A stretch of 5,732 nucleotides of DNA from Escherichia coli (GCF_030013595.1 NZ_CP122774.1), one strand, 5' to 3'; positions 1 to 5,732 are shown, counted from the first letter of the stretch. The notes: generated by a model from the sequence alone, not told the origin. Numbers and translations are program-made.

Positions 1-495
1 ATGGCGGGCACAGTATGGCGTGACATAAGAACGGGAGAGACTGTTTTTCCTATGGGGCACCTGCACCCTCAGAGGTGCTGTGTTGATGTAAACGGTACTT
101 CTGTAGATATAGAAATTAGTTTTGGTTTTCATGTTTTTACTGATGAAAAACAAACCGGAATGCTGATGAAATTTAAGGAGGAACAGAGGTTTTTTTGTAG
201 GGAACGCTATGAGGGCAGCAAAACTATCGTTCACAGAATACTTACAGCGATAGAAAACGGTGAATACATTACAGCATTTATTTCAAAGGGGCAGGGGCAG
301 CGGTATTACCATCTTAGCCATCATGATGACTTCATTTTGATGGAAATAAGAAAGCCTCAAGATAGAAATAATTCTTTGCGTATTCATGTTGTTACAGCTT
401 ACACGCTTGATGAATGGGGGACTGTAAATAAAGGACGTAACCTGCGGTTTAGATATGTGCTGGAACAGCGACTGCAGGGAAAGAAGATTGTGTAA
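1..495 (+). CDS. Hypothetical protein, 164 aa as drawn; candidate distal gene of a two-gene accessory cassette. Start uncertain (ATG at 1, or internal ATG at 52).
   Basis: Uninterrupted ORF from position 1 to TAA at 493-495. AT-rich relative to the backbone. Followed at once by a strong hairpin terminator. An alternative start at ATG 52 is preceded by GGGAGAG (33-39). No family recognised by eye; the HLSHHDD and RIHVVTAY segments are not diagnostic. Confidence 0.5.
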   Translation: MAGTVWRDIRTGETVFPMGHLHPQRCCVDVNGTSVDIEISFGFHVFTDEKQTGMLMKFKEEQRFFCRERYEGSKTIVHRILTAIENGEYITAFISKGQGQRYYHLSHHDDFILMEIRKPQDRNNSLRIHVVTAYTLDEWGTVNKGRNLRFRYVLEQRLQGKKIV

Positions 496-531
496 AAAAC
501 AAAAAGCGCCTAAGGCGCCTTTGTTTTTTGC
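495..531. terminator. Rho-independent terminator, probably bidirectional
   Basis: GC stem GCGCC (506-510) / GGCGC (514-518) with a TAA loop, flanked by an A-run (495-505) and a T-run (519-530) that are themselves complementary, so the hairpin plus U-tract works on either strand. Confidence 0.75.
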
Positions 532-679
532 AGAATTTCGGTCTGGCCTTTCGTTATCCCGCTCACAGGCTGGGAGGGTGTGACCCCCGGCATCAGCACC
601 CCTCTCTCGAGGTTCCGGTTTGTGCTGACAACATTAGTATCCTATTCCACATGTTCGTTGTCAAACTAGCGTACTTTTT

Positions 680-770
680 GGTGTTCATTGGTGTTTATAG
701 GTTGTCATTTACCCTCTTTGTGGTTATAAGTGTTTATAGGTTTTCATTGTTTTTTATAGGTGTTCATATG
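680..770. repeat. Direct-repeat array: three copies of TTTATAGGT(T/G)NTCAT(T) plus GTTCAT half-motifs, overlapping the promoter and start of the downstream HTH gene
   Basis: tttataggttgtcatt at 694-709, tttataggttttcatt at 733-748, tttataggtgttcat at 754-768; ggtgttcatt at 680-689. Spacing between copies is 39 and 21 bp. Confidence 0.6.
702..730 (+). promoter_or_regulatory. Putative sigma70 promoter (TTGTCA, 17 bp spacer, TATAAG) for the AlpA-like gene
   Basis: -35 TTGTCA at 702-707, 17-nt spacer, -10 TATAAG at 725-730, embedded in the repeat array about 40 bp upstream of ATG 768. Confidence 0.35.
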
Positions 771-1070
771 AAGTTGCTTGATAGTAATGAAGTGTGTGAG
801 CTCTTAGGCATCAGTAAGTCCACTTTGTATCGTTGGTGCGGGGTGTCTGAGGATTTTTCTGGCTTGGGTCTAAGTAGCGGTCTTCCTCAGGCTAACGCTA
901 CTCAGAACTCTTTAGGCAGGGAAAATAGGCTCGTTAGGAGGGAATTACAGCAAAACGCTCTCGGTGTCGAAGAGACGCCAAGCGACTTCCCTCGTCCTTT
1001 CAAGATCGGTCGTTCGTTTAAATGGAAAGACGCCGAAATTATGGCTTGGCTTGAAACGCGACGCGTTTGA
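768..1070 (+). CDS. AlpA/Xis-family-like helix-turn-helix DNA-binding protein (about 100 aa) with an internal insertion
   Basis: N-terminus LLDSNEVCELLGISKSTLYRW and C-terminus FPRPFKIGRSFKWKDAEIMAWLE match the AlpA/excisionase-type HTH pattern (xLSRSTIYR ... FPKPxKLGxRxxxWxxxEIxxWL). The listed ORF begins at 528, but its first 80 codons are translation of the repeat array and the first plausible start is ATG 768. Both start and product are uncertain. Confidence 0.5.
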   Translation: MKLLDSNEVCELLGISKSTLYRWCGVSEDFSGLGLSSGLPQANATQNSLGRENRLVRRELQQNALGVEETPSDFPRPFKIGRSFKWKDAEIMAWLETRRV

Positions 1071-1083
1071 TTGATAGATCTTC

Positions 1084-1112
1084 TTGAGATCATTTGGATC
1101 TCGTCGTAGTCT
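1084..1112 (+). promoter_or_regulatory. RNA II (primer) promoter of the ColE1-type replicon
   Basis: -35 TTGAGA (1084-1089), 17-nt spacer, -10 TAGTCT (1107-1112). Same position as the pMB1/ColE1 RNA II promoter (cttcTTGAGAtc ... TAATCT), recalled from memory. Confidence 0.7.
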
Positions 1113-1119
1113 TTTGTCC

Positions 1120-1227
1120 TGTAAACGAAAAAACCACCATGGCAGGTGGTTTTTCGAAGGTTATTTAATCCTGGCAGATTGAATAACCGTGGTAACAGCC
1201 TTGTGCGAGACGTGTCACCAAATCTGT
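1120..1227 (-). ncRNA. RNA I antisense copy-number control RNA (about 108 nt, approximate ends)
   Basis: The minus-strand terminator is the complement of gtaaacgaaaaaaccaccatggcaggtggttttt (1121-1154). The 5' end aligns with the conserved ccaaat.ctgtcc block (1218-1230). The minus-strand promoter (-10 complement agtgta at 1234-1239, -35 complement cttcaa at 1258-1263) matches the pMB1 RNA I promoter layout. Loop sequences differ from ColE1/pMB1. Confidence 0.7.
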
Positions 1228-1635
1228 CCTTTCAGTGTAGCCTCACTAAGGCCACCACTTCAAGAACTTTGAATACATCTCTCGCACATCCTGTTTACCA
1301 ATGGCTACCGCCACTGGCGATTTTTCGTGTCTGTTCCGGGTTGGACTCAAGATGATAGTTACCGGGACAACGTGGTAGTCGGGCTGAACGGGGGGTTCTT
1401 GCATACAGCCCAGCTTGGAGCGAACTGTCTAAACGGAACGGGACGTGGTGATTTAGGTAAAGCTTCCACCACAACACGGATGCCGCAGGACGGGAACAGG
1501 AGAGCGCAAGAGGGAGCCGCCAGGGGGAAACGCCTGGTATCTTTAAGTCCTGTCGGGTTTCGCCACCTCTGACTTGAGCGTCGATTTTTGTGATGCTCGT
1601 CAGGGGGGCGGAGCCTATGGAAAAACGCCAGCGGC
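1121..1635 (+). ncRNA. RNA II pre-primer transcript (approximate ends)
   Basis: Inferred from the promoter at 1084-1112 and the conserved origin switch region near 1620-1640. Ends are not determined. Confidence 0.65.
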
Positions 1636-1799
1636 GTGGCCTTCTCTGGGTTCTTGTTTTTTGCTCACATGTTTCTTTTGGTGTTATCCCCTGATTCTGT
1701 GGATAACCGCATTACCGTCTTTGAGTGAGCTGATACCGCTCGCCGCAGCCGAACGACCGAGCGTAGCGAGTCAGTGAGCGAGGAAGCGGAAGAGCGTCG

Positions 1800-1940
1800 G
1801 AAGTTGCATTTTCTCCTTACACATCTGTGCGGCATTTCACACCCGGCATGGCGCACTTTTCATACAATCCGCACTGATGCCGCATGGTTAAGCCAGTATA
1901 CACTCCGCTATCGCTACGTGACTGGGTCATGGCTGCGGCC
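1800..1940. other. bom/oriT (basis of mobility) region of a ColE1-type plasmid, expected to contain the nic site
   Basis: Near-identity, by recollection, to the pBR322/ColE1 bom segment (catacaatc.gc.ctgatgccgcat.gttaagccagtatacactccgctatcgctacgtgactgggtcatggctgcg), lying between ori and rop as in ColE1. Confidence 0.7.
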
Positions 1941-2018
1941 TGACGCGCCCTGACGGGCTTGTCTGCTCCCGGCATCCGCTCACAGACAAGCTGTGACCGT
2001 CTCCGGGAGCTGTATGTG

Positions 2019-2210
2019 TCAGAGGTTTTCACCGTCATCCCCGAAGCGTGCGAGGCAGCTGCGGTAAAGCTCATCGGCGTGGTCGTGAAGCGATTCACAG
2101 ATGTCTGCCTGTTCATCCGCGTCCAGTTCGTTGAGCTTTTCCAGCAGCGTTAATGTCTGGCTTCTGATAAAGCGGGCCATGTTAAGGGCGGTTTTTTCCT
2201 GTTTAGTCAC
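2019..2210 (-). CDS. rop: Rop/Rom, RNA I-RNA II interaction modulator (63 aa)
   Basis: Translation MTKQEKTALNMARFIRSQTLTLLEKLNELDADEQADICESLHDHADELYRSCLARFGDDGENL matches the ColE1/pBR322 Rop sequence as I remember it. Here the start codon is GTG (complement of 2208-2210), with GGAGG 6 nt upstream on the minus strand. Confidence 0.95.
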   Translation of the reverse strand: MTKQEKTALNMARFIRSQTLTLLEKLNELDADEQADICESLHDHADELYRSCLARFGDDGENL

Positions 2211-2250
2211 TGATGCCTCCGTGTAAGGGGGGATTTCTGTTCATGGGGTA

Positions 2251-2598
2251 ATGATACCGATGAAACGCGAGAGGATGCTCACGATACGGGTTACTGATGA
2301 TGAACATGCACGGTTACTGGAACGCTGTGAGGGTAAACAGCTGGCGGTATGGATGCGGCGGGTCTGTCTGGGTGAGCCGGTTGCCCGTTCCGGGAAGCTG
2401 CCGACACTGGCACCGCCGTTACTGCGCCAGCTGGCTGCCATCGGGAATAATCTGAATCAGACGGCGAGGAAGGTGAACAGCGGGCAGTGGTCTTCCGGTG
2501 ACCGGGTTCAGGTGGTGGCCGCACTGATGGCCATCGAGAGAGAGTTGCGCAGCTTACGGCAGGTCGTCAGGGAACATGGAGCGCGGGATGATAGTTAA
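2251..2598 (+). CDS. mbeC: Mobilisation protein MbeC (MobC-like relaxosome accessory protein). Alternative in-frame starts at 2260 and 2275 (MLTIRV).
   Basis: Translation ...MLTIRVTDDEHARLLERCEGKQLAVWMRRVCLGEP... is the MobC/MbeC N-terminal pattern; the 5' part is the same sequence retained as a remnant in pBR322. Stop TAA at 2596-2598 overlaps the mbeA start. Confidence 0.88.
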   Translation: MIPMKRERMLTIRVTDDEHARLLERCEGKQLAVWMRRVCLGEPVARSGKLPTLAPPLLRQLAAIGNNLNQTARKVNSGQWSSGDRVQVVAALMAIERELRSLRQVVREHGARDDS

Positions 2599-4330
2599 GT
2601 TTCATGCCAGGGGAAAAGGCGGTGGCAGTGGTCCGGTTGATTACCTGCTGGGAAGGGAGCGTAACCGGGAAGGGGCAACGGTGCTTCAGGGTAATCCGGA
2701 AGAAGTCCGGGAACTCATCGATGCCACGCCATTTGCGAAGAAATACACGTCAGGTGTTCTGTCGTTCGCGGAGAAGGAGCTGCCGCCTGGAGGGCGTGAA
2801 AAAGTGATGGCGAGCTTTGAGCGTGTACTGATGCCCGGTCTCGAGAAAAATCAGTACAGCATCCTGTGGGTGGAGCACCAGGACAAGGGACGGCTTGAGC
2901 TGAATTTTGTCATTCCGAACATGGAGCTACAGACCGGAAAACGCCTCCAGCCGTACTACGACCGGGCAGACAGGCCGAGAATTGATGCCTGGCAGACGCT
3001 GGTTAATCACCATTACGGGCTGCATGACCCCAACGCCCCGGAGAACCGCCGGACGCTGACCCTTCCTGATAACCTGCCGGAAACGAAACAGGCGCTTGCA
3101 GAGAGCGTCACACGCGGGATAGACGCTCTTTATCATGTCGGGGAGATAAAAGGCCGTCAGGATGTGATTCAGGCGCTCACAGAGGCAGGGCTTGAAGTGG
3201 TCAGGGTGACGCGAAGCAGTATCAGCATTGCAGACCCGAACGGTGGGAAGAATATCAGGCTGAAAGGAGCATTTTATGAGCAATCTTTTACAGACGGGCG
3301 CGGAGTTCGAGAAAAAGCTGAAAGAGAGAGCCGAATCTACAGAGACAATGCTGAACGACGAGTTCAGCAAGCTCGAAAAATCTGTAAGCAAGGCTGTGAC
3401 ATCAAACGAGACGAAAATCAAAGACGCTATAGCCCTGTTCACAGCTTCGACAGAGGAATCACTGAAAAAACACCGGGAAGGGGTGAAAGAGGCGATGATG
3501 CAGCACAGGAAGGACGTGTTAAAGCTGGCAGGGAATACGGGCATGATGTTACTGGGGATGGTCCTTTTCCTGTTTACCGTGAGTGGCGGGACGCTCTGGT
3601 ATCTTGGCGGGCGGATACAGGCGAACCTGGAAGAAATCAGGATACAGGAAGAAACATTGCAGAAACTGAACGCGAAGACATGGGGCGTGGAGTTTGTGCA
3701 GGACGGGAGAAGGAAATTTCTGGTCATCCCGCAGGGGAAATCGGCAACGGTGATTCCCTATCAGGAGAAGGACTGGGTACAACTGACGGAGTGACACAGA
3801 GTGACGGAGCTGGAAAGACATTTGCTGAACGCCTTAGAGCAACTGCAACAGGACTATATGCAGCGGCTGAGCGAATGGGAGAGCGCCTTCGTGGAATTGC
3901 AGAAAATGTTTTCGCTTACGCAACGGGACAACGCGATGCTGAACGAGCAGGTCATGCAGTTGAGTCAGCAGGTGCAGCACTTGAGCGAGCGGACAGAACG
4001 CTTGAGCCAGTTATACAGCGAGAACAGGAGATAAGGGACGAACGGCTGATACAGGAGCGCGAACATGAGTTATCCCTGGAGCGTGAGCGCCAGCTGGAAA
4101 TACAGGAACGGACACTGGATGGCATGGTAATCAGAGACAGGCTAAAATGTTGTCAGCGCGTTTCCGGTGCATTTTTTGGGATAATGGTTGGTTCGGGGGC
4201 ACCGGGAACGCGCTTCAGTCAGACCTTGCTGAAAACACAGGAACGCGTTAAAACGCATACGGGCGCGATTCTGGTGTGTCTTTTGTTGCTGTGTTTTGCC
4301 TCTATTGCCAGATCGCGCTCATTCCCCTGA
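2588..4330 (+). CDS. mbeA: Mobilisation relaxase MbeA (ColE1-type). 580 aa from ATG 2588 (the ORF track starts 4 codons earlier at 2576); 3' boundary should be verified.
   Basis: N-terminus MIVKFHARGKGGGSGPVDYLLGRE is the canonical relaxase start. The ORF overlaps the mbeC stop by 11 nt and contains mbeB and mbeD in the +1 frame, as in ColE1. The hydrophobic C-terminal tail (ILVCLLLLCFASIA) is atypical. Confidence 0.85.
   Translation: MIVKFHARGKGGGSGPVDYLLGRERNREGATVLQGNPEEVRELIDATPFAKKYTSGVLSFAEKELPPGGREKVMASFERVLMPGLEKNQYSILWVEHQDKGRLELNFVIPNMELQTGKRLQPYYDRADRPRIDAWQTLVNHHYGLHDPNAPENRRTLTLPDNLPETKQALAESVTRGIDALYHVGEIKGRQDVIQALTEAGLEVVRVTRSSISIADPNGGKNIRLKGAFYEQSFTDGRGVREKAERESRIYRDNAERRVQQARKICKQGCDIKRDENQRRYSPVHSFDRGITEKTPGRGERGDDAAQEGRVKAGREYGHDVTGDGPFPVYREWRDALVSWRADTGEPGRNQDTGRNIAETEREDMGRGVCAGREKEISGHPAGEIGNGDSLSGEGLGTTDGVTQSDGAGKTFAERLRATATGLYAAAERMGERLRGIAENVFAYATGQRDAERAGHAVESAGAALERADRTLEPVIQREQEIRDERLIQEREHELSLERERQLEIQERTLDGMVIRDRLKCCQRVSGAFFGIMVGSGAPGTRFSQTLLKTQERVKTHTGAILVCLLLLCFASIARSRSFP
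3276..3794 (+). CDS. mbeB: Mobilisation protein MbeB (172 aa), nested in the +1 frame of mbeA
   Basis: 172-codon ORF with AGGAG (3265-3269) 6 nt upstream of ATG 3276. Position and length agree with ColE1 mbeB; it has a central hydrophobic segment (MMLLGMVLFLFTVSGGTLWYL). Confidence 0.8.
   Translation: MSNLLQTGAEFEKKLKERAESTETMLNDEFSKLEKSVSKAVTSNETKIKDAIALFTASTEESLKKHREGVKEAMMQHRKDVLKLAGNTGMMLLGMVLFLFTVSGGTLWYLGGRIQANLEEIRIQEETLQKLNAKTWGVEFVQDGRRKFLVIPQGKSATVIPYQEKDWVQLTE
3801..4034 (+). CDS. mbeD: Mobilisation protein MbeD (77 aa), same frame as mbeB, GTG start 6 nt after the mbeB stop
   Basis: GTG at 3801 with GGAG 10 nt upstream. Coiled-coil-like sequence (LEQLQQDYMQRLSEWESAFVELQKMF...). 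Position corresponds to ColE1 mbeD. Confidence 0.7.
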   Translation: MTELERHLLNALEQLQQDYMQRLSEWESAFVELQKMFSLTQRDNAMLNEQVMQLSQQVQHLSERTERLSQLYSENRR

Positions 4331-4435
4331 ACTTCTGTTTTCCCGCTCCGGTCCCCGTCTTCTTCGCTTCCGAAAGCATGAAAAAAATCCGTTTCAGCTG
4401 TCTCTGGCTGGCAATTCCTGCGTGATTCACATGGC

Positions 4436-4577
4436 TGCATAGCTATGCATGTGGTTAAAATTTACCGGGTGCGATCGCGGCAGTTTTTCGGGTGGTTTGT
4501 TGCCATTTTTACCTGTCTGCTGCCGTGATCGCACCGAACGCGTTTCTGCGGTGCGGGCAACGGATGTTATGGTAAAT
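4436..4577. other. cer/psi-like Xer site-specific recombination (multimer resolution) site: accessory region with a palindromic box plus XerC/XerD core
   Basis: Core GGTGCGGGCAA-CGGATG-TTATGGTAAAT (4550-4577). The right arm is identical to the cer/dif XerD arm TTATGGTAAAT as I recall it, and the left arm is GGTGCG..CAA like the XerC arms. A perfect 14-bp palindrome TGCATAGCTATGCA (4436-4449) lies about 100 bp upstream, where cer carries its ArgR box. Confidence 0.55.
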
Positions 4578-4693
4578 ATTGGTGCTCTGGGATGAAGCGA
4601 AAATAGGCTTTTTTTCGCTATTTTAGCCTGTTCAGGAACGGCAAGAGTAAATATCTGGGAGCATGAAGCTCGTTAACCTGAATGGAGATCCTG

Positions 4694-4858
4694 ATGATGG
4701 ACAAAGATACCACCACCCTAAAACGCACTTTGGCTCATAATCGAGCCTTTAGCGATAATATTAACCGCAGTGGCATAGCCTGGTGCTATAACACTGAGAT
4801 TGTACTCGCTGCTTGTGAGGCGATTGAAGCCGAACTACAACGGCGAGGATGTTTGTAA
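4694..4858 (+). CDS. Small hypothetical protein (54-55 aa: MMDKDTTTLKRTLAHNRAFSDNINRSGIAWCYNTEIVLAACEAIEAELQRRGCL)
   Basis: Not in the ORF track (below its length cutoff). GGAG at 4684-4687 sits 6 nt upstream of tandem ATG ATG (4694-4699). TAA at 4856-4858 is followed within 10 nt by a strong terminator. Confidence 0.4.
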   Translation: MMDKDTTTLKRTLAHNRAFSDNINRSGIAWCYNTEIVLAACEAIEAELQRRGCL

Positions 4859-4865
4859 CAATAAG

Positions 4866-4889
4866 AAAACCCGCATCAGCGGGTTTTTT
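4866..4889 (+). terminator. Rho-independent terminator
   Basis: aaaacccgc-atca-gcgggtttttt: perfect 9-bp stem, 4-nt loop and a T-run. Confidence 0.75.
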
Positions 4890-4960
4890 AGTCTCTGAGA
4901 CGCGCTACCGCTAAATTATTTTTCTCTCTATCCGCCCTGGCTTGCCCCCTACAACCCCAT

Positions 4961-5007
4961 GGAGCACAAGGAGCACAGGGAGAACCATCGAGCACAACGA
5001 GCACCGC
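4961..5007. repeat. Five tandem degenerate 9-bp repeats (G)GAGCACA-type
   Basis: ggagcacaa | ggagcacag | ggagaaccatc | gagcacaac | gagcaccgc, read directly from the sequence, immediately upstream of the AT-rich tract. Confidence 0.6.
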
Positions 5008-5009
5008 CT

Positions 5010-5190
5010 TCCTCTTATAAATCATTATTAATCATATAATTAAACAACTTCATTGTAATATATATTACTTTTTATGTTTTTAAATGTAATGTTTATTGCG
5101 ATTTAGCTTGTTTTTAACTCTATTTTTTCAGATGAGAACAAGCTGCCAGCAATGAATAACTATTTGATTTTATTGGTTTTTTCAATAAAT
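5010..5190 (+). promoter_or_regulatory. AT-rich leader or promoter tract upstream of the terminal gene (exact promoter not mapped)
   Basis: About 180 bp of strongly AT-rich sequence with several TATAAT-like and TTGA-like hexamers (for example ttataaatcattattaatcatataatt and ttgtaatatatattac), contrasting with the GC-rich backbone. Confidence 0.35.
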
Positions 5191-5219
5191 TAGTGTCCAT
5201 AGACAAACGGGAGACGACT

Positions 5220-5732
5220 ATGTCCGCAAGAGCAAGAAAAGCAGGTAAGAGAAATCAGTCAGAACGACGTCAGGATTTGATTGAAAAATTGTGGGAAGAC
5301 GACGAAATCGATACTTGGCATCGACTTGAAAATGATGGGTACTCAACAGTTCCACGTTATTTGCCTTTGATAGGCGATCTCATGGATGGTCTGTCAAAAG
5401 GATCACCATTATCAACAACCTACTTGGCTTTATGGTTCAGGGTTTCTGATGAGGGGTTGATTGAAATAAGAGATAAAGCAGCACTGGCTTTTGAATCAGG
5501 GTTCGCTAGTGAAAGAGGCGTAACTACATGGGCAGGGAGAATGAAAAAGCTAAAAGAACTGGGGTTCATATCCTGTCGTGAAGGCAGCACCGGTGAATTT
5601 CATTACGTGTTAATTGTTCACCCATTAGTTGCAGTCAAAAAGCTGCTTGATGAAGGGATTATCCCTAAAGGAAAGACTTATAACATTTTGTCGGAGCGTG
5701 TAATTGAGGTGGGAGCCTCTTGGGAGGGTTAA
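5220..5732 (+). CDS. Hypothetical winged-helix-like DNA-binding protein (170 aa from ATG 5220; the ORF track starts at GTG 5193). Candidate proximal gene of the two-gene accessory cassette.
   Basis: GGGAG (5208-5212) lies 7 nt upstream of ATG 5220. Basic N-terminus (ARARKAGKRNQSERRQ). The central segment TTYLALWFRVSDEGLIEIRDKAALAFESGFASERGVTTWAGRMKKLKELGFISCREGSTGEFHYVLI has a helix, helix-turn-helix and beta-wing pattern typical of wHTH regulators, Rep proteins or antitoxins. Stop TAA is the last three bases of the window. Confidence 0.6.
   Translation: MSARARKAGKRNQSERRQDLIEKLWEDDEIDTWHRLENDGYSTVPRYLPLIGDLMDGLSKGSPLSTTYLALWFRVSDEGLIEIRDKAALAFESGFASERGVTTWAGRMKKLKELGFISCREGSTGEFHYVLIVHPLVAVKKLLDEGIIPKGKTYNILSERVIEVGASWEG

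Follow-up and report, generated by a model that had tools for sequence, protein, structure and literature searches.

A variable cargo slot beside a cer-like Xer site in an Escherichia coli ColE1-type plasmid, with a putative conflict cassette in its mosaic cargo

The cer-like sites of ColE1-type plasmids carry about 180–200 bp of accessory sequence on their XerC side, which binds ArgR and PepA. Recombination at cer/Xer sites and at the origin of transfer (oriT) has been linked to ColE1 plasmid evolution by Zakharova et al. 2002 and Tran et al. 2012, going by the passages of PMC8683028 and PMC6764390 that cite them. We analysed a 5,732-bp stretch of E. coli DNA (NZ_CP122774.1, assembly GCF_030013595.1; the window, numbered from its first letter), which is a complete circular ColE1-type mobilisable plasmid. 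It displays an ordinary, previously described plasmid architecture, a ColE1 cargo slot beside an Xer site, here with unusually exact junctions. Taken as a whole, we find it rather likely that this slot exchanges its content through Xer recombination and holds a mosaic cargo that includes a conflict cassette.

The cargo slot and the cer-like core at its edge

Comparison with plasmids that share the backbone and carry different cargo, a check proposed in an earlier reading of the window (the sequence-only reading), maps a variable slot together with its junctions. The backbone occurs at 93–96% identity with at least five unrelated cargos. The features that delimit the slot, and the cargos of five comparison plasmids (L002–L006), are as follows.

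1077–4577, no strand assigned: conserved ColE1-type backbone (ori, rop, mob, cer), limits from megablast and blastn in L002–L006, GC 0.538
4550–4577, plus strand: cer-like Xer core of 28 bp, made up of XerC arm, 6-bp central region and XerD arm
4550–4560, plus strand: XerC arm GGTGCGGGCAA, 11 bp
4561–4566, plus strand: central region CGGATG, 6 bp
4567–4577, plus strand: XerD arm TTATGGTAAAT, exact match
1083–1111, plus strand: RNAII promoter-like region, with −35 TTGAGA at 1083–1088 and −10-like TAGTCT at 1106–1111 read from the sequence; assigned as the RNAII promoter by comparison with the known one of pBR322/ColE1
L002: an ATP-binding protein pair in the slot
L003 (= pSB13): a restriction-modification system in the slot
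L004: a second, different restriction-modification system in the slot
L005: a ParA pair in the slot
L006: other hypothetical proteins in the slot

All five plasmids are identical or nearly identical to the window up to 4577, the last base of the XerD arm, and unalignable from 4578 on; L002 and L005 show 0 mismatches across 4380–4577. Homology resumes at 1076/1077; the stop codon of a helix-turn-helix (HTH) gene ends 6 nt before this point, and the RNAII −35 element lies 6–7 nt beyond it. The variable slot runs from 4578 across the window ends to 1076 and measures 2,231 bp, and we are highly confident of both its existence and its limits. The proposal that the AT-richer DNA is variable cargo in a conserved ColE1 backbone is borne out, since five unrelated cargos occupy the same place. 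The limits first proposed for the cargo (4600–5732 plus 1–531, ~1.66 kb) were too narrow for the real slot of 2.23 kb, which also includes an SraL-like small RNA (sRNA), a repeat array and the HTH gene. The two strong terminators that were thought to bracket the cargo do exist (4866–4887, and a bidirectional one at 502–522), but both lie inside it.

The reverse arrangement is also found. A different backbone, that of 5,413-bp Enterobacter/Klebsiella plasmids (the L007 lineage), carries the whole cargo at 97.7% identity. These plasmids are 99–100% identical to the window from 4548 to about 1567, a segment that takes in the cer core, all of the cargo and RNAII with its promoter, and are ~65–75% identical or unalignable elsewhere: identity is ~65% in the presumed cer accessory DNA adjoining on the left, the mob genes reach ~70% or cannot be aligned, and a rop gene is missing. 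The break falls at 4547/4548, where the last left mismatch (4547) is followed by one mismatch up to 4700. A second breakpoint between the window and L007 lies between 1405 and 1568, in homologous ori DNA. The sequence-only reading had named a constant association of cargo and backbone, with no variable junctions, as the outcome that would speak against it; the plasmids display the opposite in both directions.

The predicted cer-like site is present, with its core at 4550–4577. The core has the make-up of such sites (XerC arm, centre of 6–8 bp, XerD arm) and is conserved in seven of seven related plasmids. A search with the ColE1 cer core and its 8-bp spacer returned nothing, and the site with its 6-bp centre was found by eye and through the XerD arm. 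The DNA upstream of the core is highly conserved and contains a TGCATAGCTATGCA palindrome ~100 bp upstream. The XerD arm has a single match in the window, allowing up to two mismatches, and the same scan of the window found no second Xer site at the 1076 junction; L002–L006 have exactly one copy of TTATGGTAAAT apiece.

The window, L001, L002, L005 and L007 share an identical 28-bp core, as Xer exchange requires. One set of relatives breaks at the right core edge and another 2–3 nt from the left edge, so that in six independent comparisons the breakpoints are no more than 1–3 nt away from one or the other edge of this 28-bp core. Breaks at both edges indicate that the crossovers were confined to the core, and this confinement supports Xer-mediated shuffling as the presumed process. 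Natural plasmid pairs, one set for each core edge, give about as clean a signature of site-specific exchange as sequence comparison can provide. Of the earlier idea of Xer-mediated capture at the cer-like site, a recombination junction at the outer edge of the XerD arm (4577/4578) stands; this junction is not at 4330, and the other is at 1076/1077 instead of 531.

On this evidence, the cargo is probably exchanged by Xer catalysis. Most probably, XerC and XerD would fuse two plasmids that carry identical cores through one crossover inside the 28-bp core, and a second crossover in homologous ori/backbone DNA would resolve the fusion. This second crossover in ori DNA is needed because there is a single Xer site, and since no second Xer-like site is found in the window, the cargo does not belong with the Xer-flanked cassettes known from Acinetobacter.

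Two points weigh against Xer catalysis: sequence alone cannot tell it apart from RecA recombination acting through the conserved core and the DNA on either side, and the left junction is without an Xer site, the window having only one XerD arm. The junctions at the core edges could mark only the limit of functional constraint, with the cargo being replaced by RecA-dependent homologous or by illegitimate recombination, for which core and backbone would provide patches of homology, and no Xer catalysis. The window/L007 breakpoint at 1405–1568, located in ordinary ori homology and not at any specific site, would fit such a process, as would the slot edge at 1076/1077, which is a functional edge (the RNAII promoter) and not a recombination site, and the presence of one Xer site only. 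However, non-essential spacer flanks the core on both sides, so random breakpoints had room, and yet six comparisons break within 1–3 nt of the edges of the same core. Moreover, a patch of 28 bp is at the lower limit for RecA recombination, and Xer-mediated cointegration of ColE1-type plasmids was proposed earlier, as far as the citing passages of PMC6764390 and PMC8683028 report it. We therefore regard replacement without Xer catalysis as improbable.

Base composition and the conserved backbone

The contrast in base composition that had drawn attention to this plasmid is real. GC content is 0.548 in the backbone (1300–4330), as compared with 0.416 and 0.410 in the flanks (4580–5732 and 1–500). 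The best circular two-segment partition, an unsupervised fit, separates 1281–4560/4565 (GC 0.546) from the remainder (0.425) with a log-likelihood ratio of 40.5–40.8. Shuffling in blocks of 10, 50 and 100 nt (200 shuffles each) gave maxima of 11.8, 18.9 and 31.9, respectively, and 0/200 reached the observed value each time. Codon usage, the other suggested check, points the same way, with a GC content at third codon positions (GC3) of 0.36 and 0.38 for cargo genes A and B (described below) versus 0.48–0.76 for rop and the mob genes. The backbone elements are

1125–1226, minus strand: RNAI, the antisense RNA that controls copy number (Rfam RF00106, 77.1 bits; gathering threshold 47)
2019–2210, minus strand: rop (PF01815, E = 6e-37)
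2251–4330, plus strand: mobilisation region (Pfam matches, indel map and comparison of open reading frames, ORFs)
2251–2598, plus strand: MobC-like gene (Pfam)
2576–4330, plus strand: relaxase ORF (Pfam)
3276–3794, plus strand: mbeB (Pfam)
3801–4034, plus strand: mbeD (Pfam)

The RNAI gene overlaps the 5′ end of RNAII, as expected of a ColE1-type replicon, and the mobilisation genes match PF03432, PF05713, PF04837 and PF04899, the complete set for a module of the MOB(P)/MbeA type. Rop/Rom is an optional accessory protein within the ColE1-type replicon family.

The boundary is neither where it was first drawn nor as sharp. Composition does not change at 4330: GC stays at 0.46–0.55 from 4200 to ~4575 and is 0.41–0.45 thereafter, the fall taking place at about 4550–4600. 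Position 4330 entered as a coordinate because the relaxase ORF, frameshifted by an 11-bp deletion, happens to end there. The AT-rich part is patchy, with GC-rich islands at 4875–5024 (0.52–0.56) and 500–650 (0.56–0.58) and a value of ~0.50 at 800–1075. The deepest AT-richness is a single 200-nt trough at 5000–5200 (GC 0.17–0.28), the promoter/operator region of gene A. On the left, the compositional change point (~1281) coincides with neither 531 nor the true junction at 1076/1077; it lies inside the backbone because the 5′ region of RNAI/RNAII has a GC content of 0.40–0.47.

Part of the AT-richness is thus functional and not foreign (the trough at 5000–5200 and the RNAI region), which counts against base composition as a mark of captured DNA. 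Taken further, the whole contrast might reflect local function, AT-rich promoters, operators and terminators standing against GC-rich structured RNAII and overlapping mob genes. In agreement with this, the deepest trough coincides with a conserved promoter/operator region, AT-richer DNA also occurs within the backbone (the RNAI region), and the cargo contains GC-rich stretches such as the sRNA (0.52) and the repeat block 4891–5010 (0.56). Nevertheless, the difference extends to synonymous positions, as the GC3 values show, and the cargo is demonstrably exchangeable and is also present on other types of replicon, IncR and further large plasmids among them. Local function as the sole cause is, in our judgement, quite improbable.

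More than 5,000 ColE1-type plasmids of PLSDB match the window. Fourteen database plasmids do so over at least 80% of its length, the best being 5,775-bp E. coli plasmids at 99% identity. In one of this type, NZ_CP122590.1, an annotated gene start coincides with window position 1. The window departs from this plasmid by 17 substitutions and lacks 23 bp of it at 1935, another 11 bp at 4123 and a further 9 bp at 4998; these three deletions are either true variants or assembly errors. The deletion at 1935 leaves the window without 23 bp between ori and rop that its close relatives have. The one at 4123, seen against all close relatives, disrupts the 3′ end of the relaxase gene by eliminating the usual C-terminus and stop codon, and turns a protein of 521 amino acids in the relatives into a 584-residue read-through product ending at 4330. 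Three further records hold the plasmid at roughly 2–3 times unit length, NZ_CP127261.1 (17,322 bp, with 3–4 matching places), NC_017654.1 (12,068 bp) and CP025969.1 (9,863 bp), and may represent multimers of a plasmid that bears cer, or concatemers produced in assembly.

The mosaic cargo and its core module

The sequence-only reading took the cargo for one captured module. The DNA is variable cargo as proposed, but it is a mosaic of three parts with different distributions and not a single captured unit. Its features are

4578–4911, plus strand: sub-module 1, a 54-amino-acid ORF and a terminator hairpin (phrog_35409, E = 3e-13)
4694–4858, plus strand: the 54-amino-acid ORF with the RefSeq start; ATG 4682 would give 58 amino acids
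4866–4887, plus strand: terminator hairpin of sub-module 1 (hairpin detection)
4912→630: conserved core module, consisting of control region, gene A, gene B and SraL-like sRNA
4912–5219, plus strand: control region of the core module (alignment across five loci including the PBECR2 type; GC trough 0.17–0.28)
4962–5004, plus strand: array of 9-bp GAGCACNNN (GAGCAC) repeats, copy number varying by whole units
5055–5068: conserved 14-bp perfect palindrome GTAATATATATTAC
5164–5169 and 5186–5191, plus strand: promoter-like TTGATT-N16-TAAATT
near 5209–5214, plus strand: Shine–Dalgarno sequence of gene A
5220–5732, plus strand: gene A, a 170-amino-acid winged-helix protein of no named family, ATG 5220 being the likely start
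1–495, plus strand: gene B, a 164-amino-acid YjaZ-family protein (NF007263, E = 5e-6; predicted local distance difference test score 82.4)
496–629, minus strand: SraL/RyjA-like sRNA of 134 nt, with which the conserved core module ends (RF01408, 84.7 bits; gathering threshold 39)
502–522, both strands: bidirectional terminator hairpin common to gene B and the convergent sRNA, detected on both strands
664–636, minus strand: promoter-like TTGACA-N17-GATACT of the sRNA
631–1076, plus strand: sub-module 3, repeats and an HTH_17/AlpA-like gene (PF12728, E = 4e-10)
675–767: four 10-bp-phased TTATAGGT-type repeats immediately upstream of the HTH_17/AlpA-like gene
768–1070, plus strand: HTH_17/AlpA-like (excisionase-family) gene (PF12728)

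A version of sub-module 1 (~67% identity) adjoins the cer core in other small ColE1 plasmids, for example in L037 (about 48–385). The core module is found at ~72% nucleotide identity in 3.3–9.6-kb plasmids of Klebsiella, Escherichia, Salmonella, Serratia, Citrobacter and Dickeya. In L008 (pIMVS1_EHS, 3,367 bp) it fills the slot alone, separated by 24 bp from the cer core on its upstream side and by 51 bp from the RNAII promoter region on its downstream side. Sub-module 3 was seen only in the 5,775-bp and 5,413-bp lineages and is absent from the minimal plasmids L008 and L009, in which the core module abuts the RNAII promoter.

The control region is conserved over five loci that are otherwise ~70% identical, and the palindrome and the repeats upstream of gene A are kept even in large plasmids where the partner protein of A differs. 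The palindrome and the GAGCAC array are candidate binding sites for A. Two ORFs over the GAGCAC repeats (45 amino acids on the minus strand and 26 on the plus strand) were considered and rejected; their frames are not conserved in L008 or L010, and the repeats are consequently treated as DNA or RNA elements. Compared with its close relatives, the window is one 9-bp GAGCACAAT repeat unit short (4998). We place the start of A at ATG 5220 rather than at GTG 5193, since the latter lies 2 nt after the −10 box.

The gene A protein has a winged helix-turn-helix (wHTH) fold, and its top structural matches are transcription factors. Pfam domains, WYL included, were found in none of 22 A-family members, searching the PDB with profiles of both families (A and B) gave no match, and PADLOC, PHROGs and NCBIfam scans of the cargo proteins assigned neither A nor B to a defence system. 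In L010 and L011 (IncR and other large conjugative plasmids), an A homologue with 79% identity is followed by a true PBECR2 protein of 164 amino acids (PF18810, E = 4e-16), which is unrelated to B in sequence. In L037 (Shigella flexneri plasmid NZ_CP055002.1), the A homologue precedes a third type of partner (1217–1780, 187 amino acids) that has no Pfam match and is neither a YjaZ-family nor a PBECR2 protein. A further locus with A, B, the SraL-like element and RNAI (L012; NZ_UNOZ01000043.1, 6,239 bp), whose A is 100% identical to that of the window, is labelled Pseudomonas reidholzensis, an unexpected ColE1 host, and may be a contamination.

A scan for distant A relatives in one genome per species yielded 24 loci from very diverse bacteria. 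The genes directly downstream of the A relative are

5 of 24 loci (L019, L020, L022, L023, L030): Abi_C (AbiJ-like HEPN)
2 of 24 loci (L025, L026): Abi_2/AbiD/PD-T4-5-like
1 of 24 loci (L024): DUF3800/PDC-M04A
1 of 24 loci (L027): Ppl PHP-ATPase, E = 5e-32
1 of 24 loci (L033): SIR2-APAZ of short-Argonaute systems, E = 1e-205
3 of 24 loci: YjaZ-family, two enterobacterial and one alphaproteobacterial (L031)

About 9 of the 24 loci are without an obvious same-strand partner, and in L033 the open frame after the SIR2-APAZ gene extends to the end of the locus. This distribution suggests that the A relatives form an unnamed winged-helix family that serves as a portable regulatory front end for interchangeable conflict effectors.

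The start codon of gene B immediately follows the stop codon of gene A. B shares 24% identity with YjaZ of E. coli K-12 (BLASTP, E = 2e-8), and B homologues bear the precomputed tag PF27200; the RefSeq name of B is 'YjaZ family protein'. A profile search of 1.84 billion proteins returned 49 B relatives, 23 of which match the YjaZ model (best E value 4.5e-36). B itself scores 26.6 bits, below the level of at least 324 that marks a YjaZ equivalog, and is a distant, paralogue-level member of the YjaZ family (NF007263/PF27200). YjaZ is uncharacterised, its former htrC assignment having been retracted (PMC11551758). The possibility that B is a divergent PBECR2 protein, given its same length and position, was discarded at the level of sequence (BLASTP E = 0.2; hhalign of the B family against the PBECR2 partners, probability 0.4%), and Pfam, PBECR2 (PF18810) included, gave no match for B or its 49 relatives. 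The BECR/RelE-ParE core consists of an N-terminal helix followed by a 4–5-stranded sheet with a conserved S/T in strand 4 (PMC5512222). A RelE-like fold of B is weakly supported, Foldseek having returned nothing significant for it, and B is possibly a RelE-like RNase. Residues H20, H44, R63, R69 and S73 make up a conserved surface of B.

The plasmid sRNA covers the SraL covariance model in full (positions 1–142) and is the best-conserved stretch of the module, at 87–90% identity compared with ~70% for the genes. Among the loci examined, it is found in every enterobacterial plasmid locus with a YjaZ-family gene B (the window, L007–L009, L012 and L013) and is absent from PBECR2-type and other-cargo plasmids and from the alphaproteobacterial YjaZ-type locus L031. 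Relative to RyjA of K-12, it keeps the 5′ stem-loop (with one compensatory change from A-U to G-C), the invariant loop CAAACCGGAAC and the terminator. The soxR-ghxP synteny of SraL is not retained, the element being plasmid-borne and placed after a YjaZ-family gene. A recent capture from the E. coli chromosome was considered and rejected, as none of 5,426 genomes gave a chromosomal blastn match. In K-12 (NC_000913.3, L038 4287–4988), a convergent sRNA, SroH, begins 1 nt past the yjaZ stop codon, and the layout of a gene followed by a convergent sRNA is thus common to chromosomal yjaZ/SroH and to plasmid B and its SraL-like RNA; no sequence similarity was found between SroH and the plasmid sRNA. 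SraL/RyjA is a core-genome sRNA with RpoS-dependent expression that regulates tig and rho. Its 5′ end has been reported to pair with tig mRNA (PMC3753932). The plasmid sRNA might exert antisense control through the terminator that it shares with gene B, or it might interfere with the targets of host SraL.

The A relatives directly upstream of diverse defence effectors make a defence or toxin–antitoxin-like role plausible. As regards a type II toxin–antitoxin system, the observations are limited to the abutting stop and start codons, the wHTH fold of A and the conserved operator-like palindrome. Judging from gene order and homology, we consider it just short of an even call that A and B form a small defence/abortive-infection or toxin–antitoxin-like (addiction) cassette. 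In such a cassette, winged-helix A would bind the conserved palindrome and the GAGCAC repeats upstream of its own gene and would control or neutralise the co-translated effector B; the convergent SraL-like sRNA has its terminator in common with B.

More tentatively, and with some doubt on our part, the core (4912→630) might be an undescribed three-part conflict module, in which A would be a sensor, regulator or antidote for interchangeable effectors, B a YjaZ-family RelE-like RNase and the sRNA a third component. The effectors of distant A relatives would then include HEPN Abi, SIR2-APAZ of prokaryotic Argonaute (pAgo) systems, Ppl and PBECR2, and the sRNA would act by antisense on the 3′ end of the effector mRNA or by reprogramming host SraL targets (tig, rho). 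If true, this would point for the first time to a function for yjaZ, an orphan gene of E. coli, and for SroH, the sRNA convergent with it.

The A–B pair could instead serve plasmid establishment or anti-defence, the effector nuclease being expressed early after transfer and disarming host RNA-based immunity, with A as transcriptional switch. The A–PBECR2 pair does lie on conjugative plasmids among genes for an ArdC-like zincin, a UmuD-like protein and ParA, near transfer genes, and PBECR domains have been predicted to be invader-side effectors (PMC5512222). However, the genes that follow distant A relatives encode defence effectors of host type (SIR2-APAZ of short pAgo, AbiD, Abi_C and Ppl), and the module is the sole cargo of 3.3-kb plasmids without an annotated relaxase gene, although PLSDB types L008 as mobilizable. 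An establishment function therefore seems unlikely to us. It is more unlikely still, to the point of being very improbable, that A is a small protein of replication or partition that binds iterons and that the GAGCAC repeats, together with the AT-rich tract, are a second origin or a centromere. Each small plasmid with the module has its own RNAI/RNAII ColE1 replicon, A relatives occur on chromosomal contigs of up to 417 kb where they adjoin defence genes, and the structural matches of A are to transcription factors, with no sequence match to a Rep family. The defence or addiction cassette thus remains our preferred reading of A and B.

Comparison with known systems

The novelty of this plasmid lies in its cargo, an unannotated, mobile and plausibly new conflict module whose function we infer. 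The two-gene-plus-sRNA module is widespread and entirely unannotated, and is the only cargo in some 3.3-kb plasmids. At ~1.5 kb on a replicon resembling a cloning vector, it is a cheap experimental target that offers a possible new defence/addiction system and might show what YjaZ-family proteins do.

The Xer site resembles ColE1 cer, mwr (pJHCMW1) and psi in its 11-bp XerC arm, short centre and exact TTATGGTAAAT XerD arm, and in its placement between mob and cargo; the conserved DNA before the core is a candidate accessory region. It differs from ColE1 cer in its centre, which is 6 bp (CGGATG) in comparison with 8 bp in cer, and in its XerC arm, which deviates at 2 of 11 positions from the ColE1 sequence. 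The breakpoints of homology at the core, found here in natural plasmids, agree with the published Xer/oriT model, whereas the second crossover is placed in ori (1405–1568) and not in oriT. The resistance modules of Acinetobacter that are flanked by pXerC/D sites (PMC5790767, PMC9947245, PMC7399989) are similar in that Xer sites border exchangeable plasmid modules and are points of cointegrate formation and resolution. Pairs or multiples of sites bracket those modules, however, whereas a single site is present here, which sets the slot apart from that class.

Gene A invites comparison with the WYL regulators BrxR and CapW (PMC9122601, PMC9122589), which are also wHTH proteins encoded immediately upstream of many unrelated defence effectors. 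A has neither a WYL domain nor a sequence relationship to these proteins and stands outside the wHTH+WYL class, so the parallel is one of functional analogy only. For the A–B pair, type II toxin–antitoxin modules with toxins of the RelE/ParE superfamily (BECR fold) are among the nearest known systems. B is a distant homologue of E. coli YjaZ (b3989), which differs in being without an A-like neighbour. The sRNA differs from E. coli SraL/RyjA in following gene B and not soxR, and is like it in fitting the same covariance model over its full length.

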